From Escherichia coli (GTDB lineage: Bacteria > Pseudomonadota > Gammaproteobacteria > Enterobacterales > Enterobacteriaceae): a DNA stretch of 64,000 nucleotides. The notes below the pieces were generated by a model, which worked only from the letters and a program-made list of their open reading frames with translations, made no database searches and was not told the DNA's origin. The translations under genes were made by a program, and so were the position numbers. Numbering within the stretch: position 1 is the stretch's first letter; every line of letters begins with the position of its first letter. This document shows positions 15,105 through 15,160 of this stretch, piece after piece. The DNA is taken from assembly GCF_024502345.1 (NCBI RefSeq), contig NZ_JALDNN010000001.1. One strand, written 5' to 3'.

Positions 15105-15160
15105 AATAATGCGCTTTGCTTTTAACTTTTAAAGCAGAAATATTGCATAATTATTCTGTC
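15105..15160 (+). promoter_or_regulatory. putative ArgR operator (ARG-box-like) in artPIQM promoter
   Basis: TTTATTGAATAATGCG and TTGCATAATTATTCT resemble the ARG-box palindrome; art genes are ArgR-regulated in K-12. Confidence 0.35.

Follow-up and report, generated by a model that had tools for sequence, protein, structure and literature searches.

The 64,000-nucleotide stretch of Escherichia coli DNA analysed here (contig NZ_JALDNN010000001.1; hereafter the window) carries the ybjP-artPIQM-artJ-rlmC locus of the species. Of 5,426 complete E. coli genomes, 5,425 are matched by a 4.8-kb query spanning the two sites discussed below; identity is 95-99% for most of them and reaches 99.5% for the best, and the gene coordinates were transferred to the window from the RefSeq annotation of a 99.5% identical E. 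coli chromosome. On the + strand lie ybjP (14476-14997), the artPIQM operon (15215-18083) and artJ (18373-19104), the gene of the periplasmic arginine-binding protein, identified by the RefSeq annotation and by comparison with K-12; rlmC (19279-20406) is on the - strand. The four genes of the operon, artP (15215-15943), artI (15961-16692), artQ (16699-17415) and artM (17415-18083), are found in the ORF list as well. AT-rich near-palindromes had been noticed in a first-pass annotation at 15105-15160 and 18260-18303, and the mapped gene coordinates place these two intervals in the ybjP-artP and artM-artJ intergenic regions, respectively.

Over 14970-15230 the artP control region is identical to that of K-12, base for base, and the artJ operator differs from its K-12 counterpart at one position, 18282 (position 18 of the distal box), where the A of the window, in place of the G of the K-12 PartJ operator, is nearer to the consensus W. 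The strain departs from K-12 in sequence elsewhere. Approximately 2.6 kb separate ybjQ from ybjP (11858-14475), compared with only ~125 bp in K-12; this insert, which looks like a strain-variable island, contains an intact ORF of 599 aa on the - strand (12068-13867), whose counterpart in the closest genome carries the annotation pentapeptide-repeat protein and is interrupted by IS1. Two single ARG-like boxes, at 13310 (14.7 bits) and 13901 (13.5 bits), are found inside the insert, both without a proper partner box.

The search for ArgR sites made use of a weight matrix trained on eight K-12 arginine-biosynthesis operators (carAB, argF, argA, argG, argR, argD, argE/argCBH, i.e., argECBH, and argI), which contribute 16 ARG boxes, the art sites being left out. 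The training boxes were the best pair of 18-mers in each K-12 control region, with a spacer of 2 or 3 bp, when matched to TNTGAATWWWWATTCANW, and the pairs recovered in this way are presumably the classical operators of those promoters. The resulting symmetrised log-odds matrix (14.1 bits; argF and argI at half weight each) was scanned over 63,983 positions, i.e., all of the ~64,000 positions of the window, for single boxes and for pairs with a 3-bp spacer. Among single boxes, 18286-18303 ranks first (20.4 bits) and 15142-15159 second (17.7 bits), with the third-best at 14.7 bits; among pairs, 18265-18303 ranks first (29.7 bits) and 15121-15159 second (25.1 bits), followed by the next independent pair at 13.0 bits. 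The near-palindromes previously seen at both art promoters are indeed imperfect palindromes, and they account for the two highest-scoring single boxes and the two highest-scoring pairs of the window. In the matrix scan, which had been proposed together with them, the sites do not score poorly: they take the top two ranks with values in the range of bona fide operators. When each of the eight training operators was left out in turn, their pair scores extended from 20.1 to 37.7 bits (median 31.5), and since the scores of artP and artJ fall within this range, both art operators score like real ones.

At artP the operator extends over 15121-15159 (this element and the boxes and promoter hexamers described below, at both promoters, are on the + strand). 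The proximal box, ATTGCATAATTATTCTGT (15142-15159; 13 of 16 matches to TNTGAATWWWWATTCANW), is the strong one and contains the -35 hexamer, and the distal box, TTTAACTTTTAAAGCAGA (15121-15138; 12 of 16 matches), located exactly 21 bp upstream and separated from it by a 3-bp spacer, aat, is weak (7.4 bits, rank 53 of 63,983). Of the interval originally drawn here, 15105-15160, the operator is the part that stands, while the 16 extra bases at the 5' side do not belong to it: they are poorly conserved and fall in a zone reported as protected by Lrp (-67 to -95, corresponding to ~15085-15113), not by ArgR. A third ARG box was also considered in 15098-15120 and rejected, as the best matches there reach 2.4-4.8 bits (2.4 at 15098-15115), with only a TGAAT half-site, in a stretch that is not conserved.

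As read from the sequence, the -35 and -10 hexamers of PartP are probably TTGCAT (15143-15148) and TACTAT (15166-15171), with a spacer of 17 bp. The transcription start was placed by mapping onto the window the primers of a fragment reported to extend from "-195 to +26" and a stretch of 76% G+C reported at "-96 to -116" (PMC6640053); because the window is identical to K-12 in this region, these published coordinates put +1 at ~15180 (±2). With respect to this reconstructed start, the two boxes cover ~-59 to -21 and TTGCAT lies at ~-37 to -32. A consensus promoter scanner applied to the artP region did not list the TTGCAT/TACTAT pair, because its 8 of 12 matches are below the scanner's threshold of 9; the alternative promoter that it gave, TTAACT-18-CATAAT (15122-15151), is incompatible with the reconstructed start and was discarded. 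Two further blocks of the artP control region are conserved. The first, ATTTTGTGCTATG (15085-15098), has the same position as the Lrp site predicted in the literature and the nucleation zone (-85 to -98); the second, CTCAATAGCTATCAG (15178-15195), is at the beginning of the artP 5' leader and may relate either to the start site or to the control by the SdsR sRNA mentioned in PMC6640053.

The artJ operator has the same layout. Its proximal box, ATTGCATATAAATTCACT (18286-18303; 14 of 16 matches to TNTGAATWWWWATTCANW), is the best single box of the window, and its distal box, TTAAATTATTTAATCATA (18265-18282; 12 of 16 matches), scores 9.2 bits (rank 20 of 63,983) and is again placed 21 bp upstream, with ttt as the 3-bp spacer. 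The interval indicated for artJ in the first-pass annotation, 18260-18303, is therefore essentially exact, the operator spanning 18265-18303. Both proximal boxes start with ATTGCAT, so that each includes a TTGCAT hexamer, at artJ in 18287-18292; the arrangement of TTGCAT, the same as at artP, together with the statement in PMC6640053 that the overlap is identical at the two promoters, leads us to infer that the artJ operator overlaps the -35 element of PartJ. At 17 bp downstream of TTGCAT, the sequence TGgCATTGT (18307-18315), which is also a conserved block in the alignment, may be the extended -10 element of this promoter. The consensus promoter scanner returned nothing useful for the artJ region.

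The artM-artJ intergenic region has other features. The stretch 18222-18258, between artM and the artJ operator, can form a strong hairpin followed by a T-run (-16.5 kcal/mol, z = -5.4), which is probably the artPIQM terminator and which stops a few bases short of the artJ distal box; its stem has an internal mismatch due to two substitutions with respect to K-12. At ~18100-18200, in the artM-artJ spacer, there are G+C-rich palindromic units, e.g., GCCGGATGCGGCGTGGACGCCTTATCCGGCCTAC, which, judging from their sequence, look like REP/BIME elements.

AT-rich DNA of a promoter, or of an UP element, could in principle resemble ARG boxes by accident. The boxes at both art promoters are 78-94% A+T, the distal ones are found just where an UP element would be expected (~-59 to -42), and these distal boxes score only 7-9 bits. 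Nevertheless, the art sites are the top two among the 64,000 positions of the window, the next independent pair trailing by more than 12 bits. Moreover, when either intergenic region was shuffled 5000 times with its dinucleotides preserved, no shuffle matched the observed pair score. In random sequence (3 Mb, generated by a first-order Markov model of the AT-rich parts of the window, 35% G+C), a single position scored 25.1 bits or more and none scored 29.7 bits or more. ArgR binding and footprints have also been reported for K-12, whose artP sequence is identical. Together with the conservation described below, these observations make an accidental likeness extremely improbable.

The conservation of the sites was followed across Enterobacterales, one genome per species being considered. 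The artP loci were collected by scanning for NGINCFYG, a peptide from the N-terminus of ArtP, written as a degenerate DNA pattern; this identified 120 loci, ~112 of which begin with M-S/C-I-x-... and are artP orthologues; they include loci from Citrobacter, Enterobacter, Klebsiella, Salmonella, Pantoea, Mixta and Hafnia, as well as from Pectobacterium, Brenneria, Cedecea and Budvicia. The 106 usable loci were scanned over 250 bp upstream of artP: the two boxes of the best pair lie 3 bp apart in 105 of them, the median score is 21.1 bits and 90 of the 106 reach at least 15 bits. Low scores come from Budvicia, from Brenneria and from some of the loci of Pectobacterium and Tatumella. The distal box is mostly TTTAACTTTTAACGCATA across the orthologues, and the proximal box is almost always ATTGCATAACTATTCTGT, being nearly invariant in 98 non-redundant Enterobacterales sequences. 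The artJ survey comprised the 52 loci having artJ downstream of artM: all 52 have an upstream pair of at least 15 bits (median 28.7), which typically ends 65-70 nt ahead of the start codon, and the 21-bp register of the boxes, i.e., the 3-bp spacer, is retained in nearly all of them. The retention of this register at artP and artJ argues against an accidental likeness, and the 39-bp operator architecture is kept at both promoters in many genera within Enterobacterales.

A conservation footprint was obtained from MAFFT alignments, built independently of the ArgR matrix. The proximal boxes stand out as the most conserved blocks, with a mean information of 1.68 and 1.50 bits; the sequences outside the boxes are at 0.92 and 0.90 bits, and the distal boxes fall in between, at 1.26 and 1.03 bits. 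The -35 hexamer itself must account for some of the conservation seen in the proximal boxes. Position by position, conservation in the artJ proximal box correlates with the information content of the ArgR matrix (Spearman 0.65, p=0.004); for the remaining three boxes the correlation, also positive, is not significant. In the proximal boxes G4, C15 and A16 vary little or not at all, which also speaks against an accidental origin; in the artJ distal box T7, A12 and C15 are retained across genera, while the left half drifts.

The artP distal box behaves differently, in that it is conserved almost uniformly, non-consensus bases included: A4 (for G), C13 (for T) and G14 are present in 80-90 of the 98 non-redundant sequences, A4 and C13 in about 90 of them. 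The positions of A4 and C13 are, according to the literature, key ArgR contacts, and the persistence of non-consensus bases at such contacts suggests that constraints beyond ArgR also act on this box. It could be, although we consider it rather doubtful, that the artP distal box is a dual-purpose element and not merely a degenerate ARG box, selected either to serve a second factor, be it Lrp or a different protein, or to keep ArgR binding deliberately weak.

The same non-consensus bases, indicating another constraint, could also be taken to mean that the AT-rich element at artP is mainly a site for Lrp, or for another nucleoid protein, with no real ArgR role. Lrp binding at artP nucleates at -86 to -112 and protects ~-165 to -10 (Torres Montaguth et al., 2019, PMC6640053), a region that does overlap the ARG boxes, and repressibility by ArgR is about nine-fold lower at PartP than at PartJ (PMC6640053). 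This explanation is nonetheless very unlikely, given the 17.7 bits scored by the artP proximal box, the position of the Lrp nucleation site, which maps to ~15068-15094 in the window, upstream of the boxes and off them, and the report that arginine repression of PartP is lost in an argR deletion and lrp mutant background. Lrp has been shown to compete with ArgR at artP both in vitro and in vivo (PMC6640053): the operator overlaps the downstream part of the extended Lrp-binding region, so that ArgR and Lrp would act as competing repressors at this promoter, Lrp co-repressing artP.

Several other ARG-like sequences of the window were considered. A box overlapping the artP start codon (15210-15227, TGTCAATGAGTATTCAAT, 11.8 bits) was rejected as a conserved site, being out of helical phase and 68 bp from the operator; it occurs in sequences of the Escherichia/Citrobacter type, in most other genera it is lost, with scores of at most 7.5 bits and often negative, and it is probably a by-product of the MSIQL codons. 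Similarly, an auxiliary-site role is unsupported for the box at 18202-18219 (10.8 bits), which precedes the artJ proximal box by exactly 84 bp (4 x 21): counting the window, only 5 of 53 loci have a box at such a distance (80-85 bp). A taxon-specific ArgR target in the RegPrecise comparative study (PMC5343134) is potFGHI, and upstream of potF (25141-25490) only weak matches were found (best single box 9.7 bits, at 25344); as the best pair there reaches only 7.3 bits, there is no canonical operator at potF. Finally, three single ARG-like boxes (14.5, 11.9 and 9.6 bits) are clustered in 38138-38324, a region comprising the dacC 5' end and the dacC-gstB intergenic sequence; no pair in this cluster is in the canonical 21-bp register, the best pair scoring 2.7 bits, and the cluster is probably AT-rich promoter DNA.

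Taken together, the sequence evidence argues with near certainty that both sites are canonical E. coli ArgR operators of 39 bp, or about four turns of the helix, each with its proximal box over the sigma-70 -35 element, of artPIQM and artJ, respectively. The resemblance to ArgR operators noticed at the outset is borne out by this canonical geometry (two boxes of 18 bp, 3 bp apart, that overlap the -35) and by its conservation across Enterobacterales. A point against this reading is the weakness of the distal boxes (7.4 and 9.2 bits); nothing contradicts it. These are, in fact, the already characterised ArgR operators of artPIQM and artJ: the artP region is identical to that of K-12 and the artJ operator is one base off, and the finding is thus a rediscovery of published operators.

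In K-12, as related in PMC6640053, which cites Caldara et al. (2007, J Mol Biol 373:251), the ArgR-arginine hexamer binds two 18-bp ARG boxes 3 bp apart at artJ and artP, ArgR represses both PartJ and PartP, and RNA polymerase is sterically excluded by ArgR at PartJ. According to the same source, the boxes overlap the -35 element to an equal extent at the two promoters, and the K-12 operators share their 18+3+18 layout and -35 overlap with those of the window. The arginine repression of the transporter genes put forward in the first-pass annotation is supported by this literature. In gammaproteobacteria, artPIQM is a core member of the ArgR regulon and artJ a taxon-specific one (PMC5343134). 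In general, ArgR operators measure 39 bp, four subunits occupy a single face of the helix and the bend is of 70-90 degrees (PMC4381063); the main text of that ChIP-exo study names neither artJ nor artP.

The operators of the biosynthetic genes (argA, argCBH/argE, argD, argF, argI, argG, argR and carAB P2) have the same 18+3+18 architecture and the same consensus as the art operators. In the latter, however, only the proximal box is strong, the distal boxes being more degenerate than most of the biosynthetic ones, and the overlap is with the -35 only, whereas the biosynthetic operators overlap, according to the literature, the -10 and/or the -35. Another ABC importer of basic amino acids, hisJQMP, is similarly repressed by ArgR and has a pair of ARG boxes, but the hisJ boxes sit further upstream and repression there is not a simple steric exclusion (PMC6640053).

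The strain analysed here presumably encodes ArgR, the argR gene being outside the window and present in E. coli K-12. When arginine is plentiful, the arginine-bound ArgR hexamer would fill both boxes on one face of the helix, as described in the literature for its binding, and would cover the -35 hexamer, keeping RNA polymerase off the promoter by the steric exclusion reported there. Less of the arginine ABC importer and of its two binding proteins would then be made, artJ being, according to the literature, strongly repressed and artPIQM moderately so. If the artP distal box were indeed a dual-purpose element, either of the two kinds of selection on it would set the lower repressibility of artPIQM with respect to artJ.

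The observation that opened this analysis is correct and ordinary, because the ArgR sites at the artPIQM and artJ promoters had already been characterised. Its significance beyond annotation is small, and the retention of the 39-bp architecture across species is a small addition to what was published. For the strain itself, the operators are placed at base resolution, and they indicate that it has retained the textbook feedback control by arginine over its importer of this amino acid.
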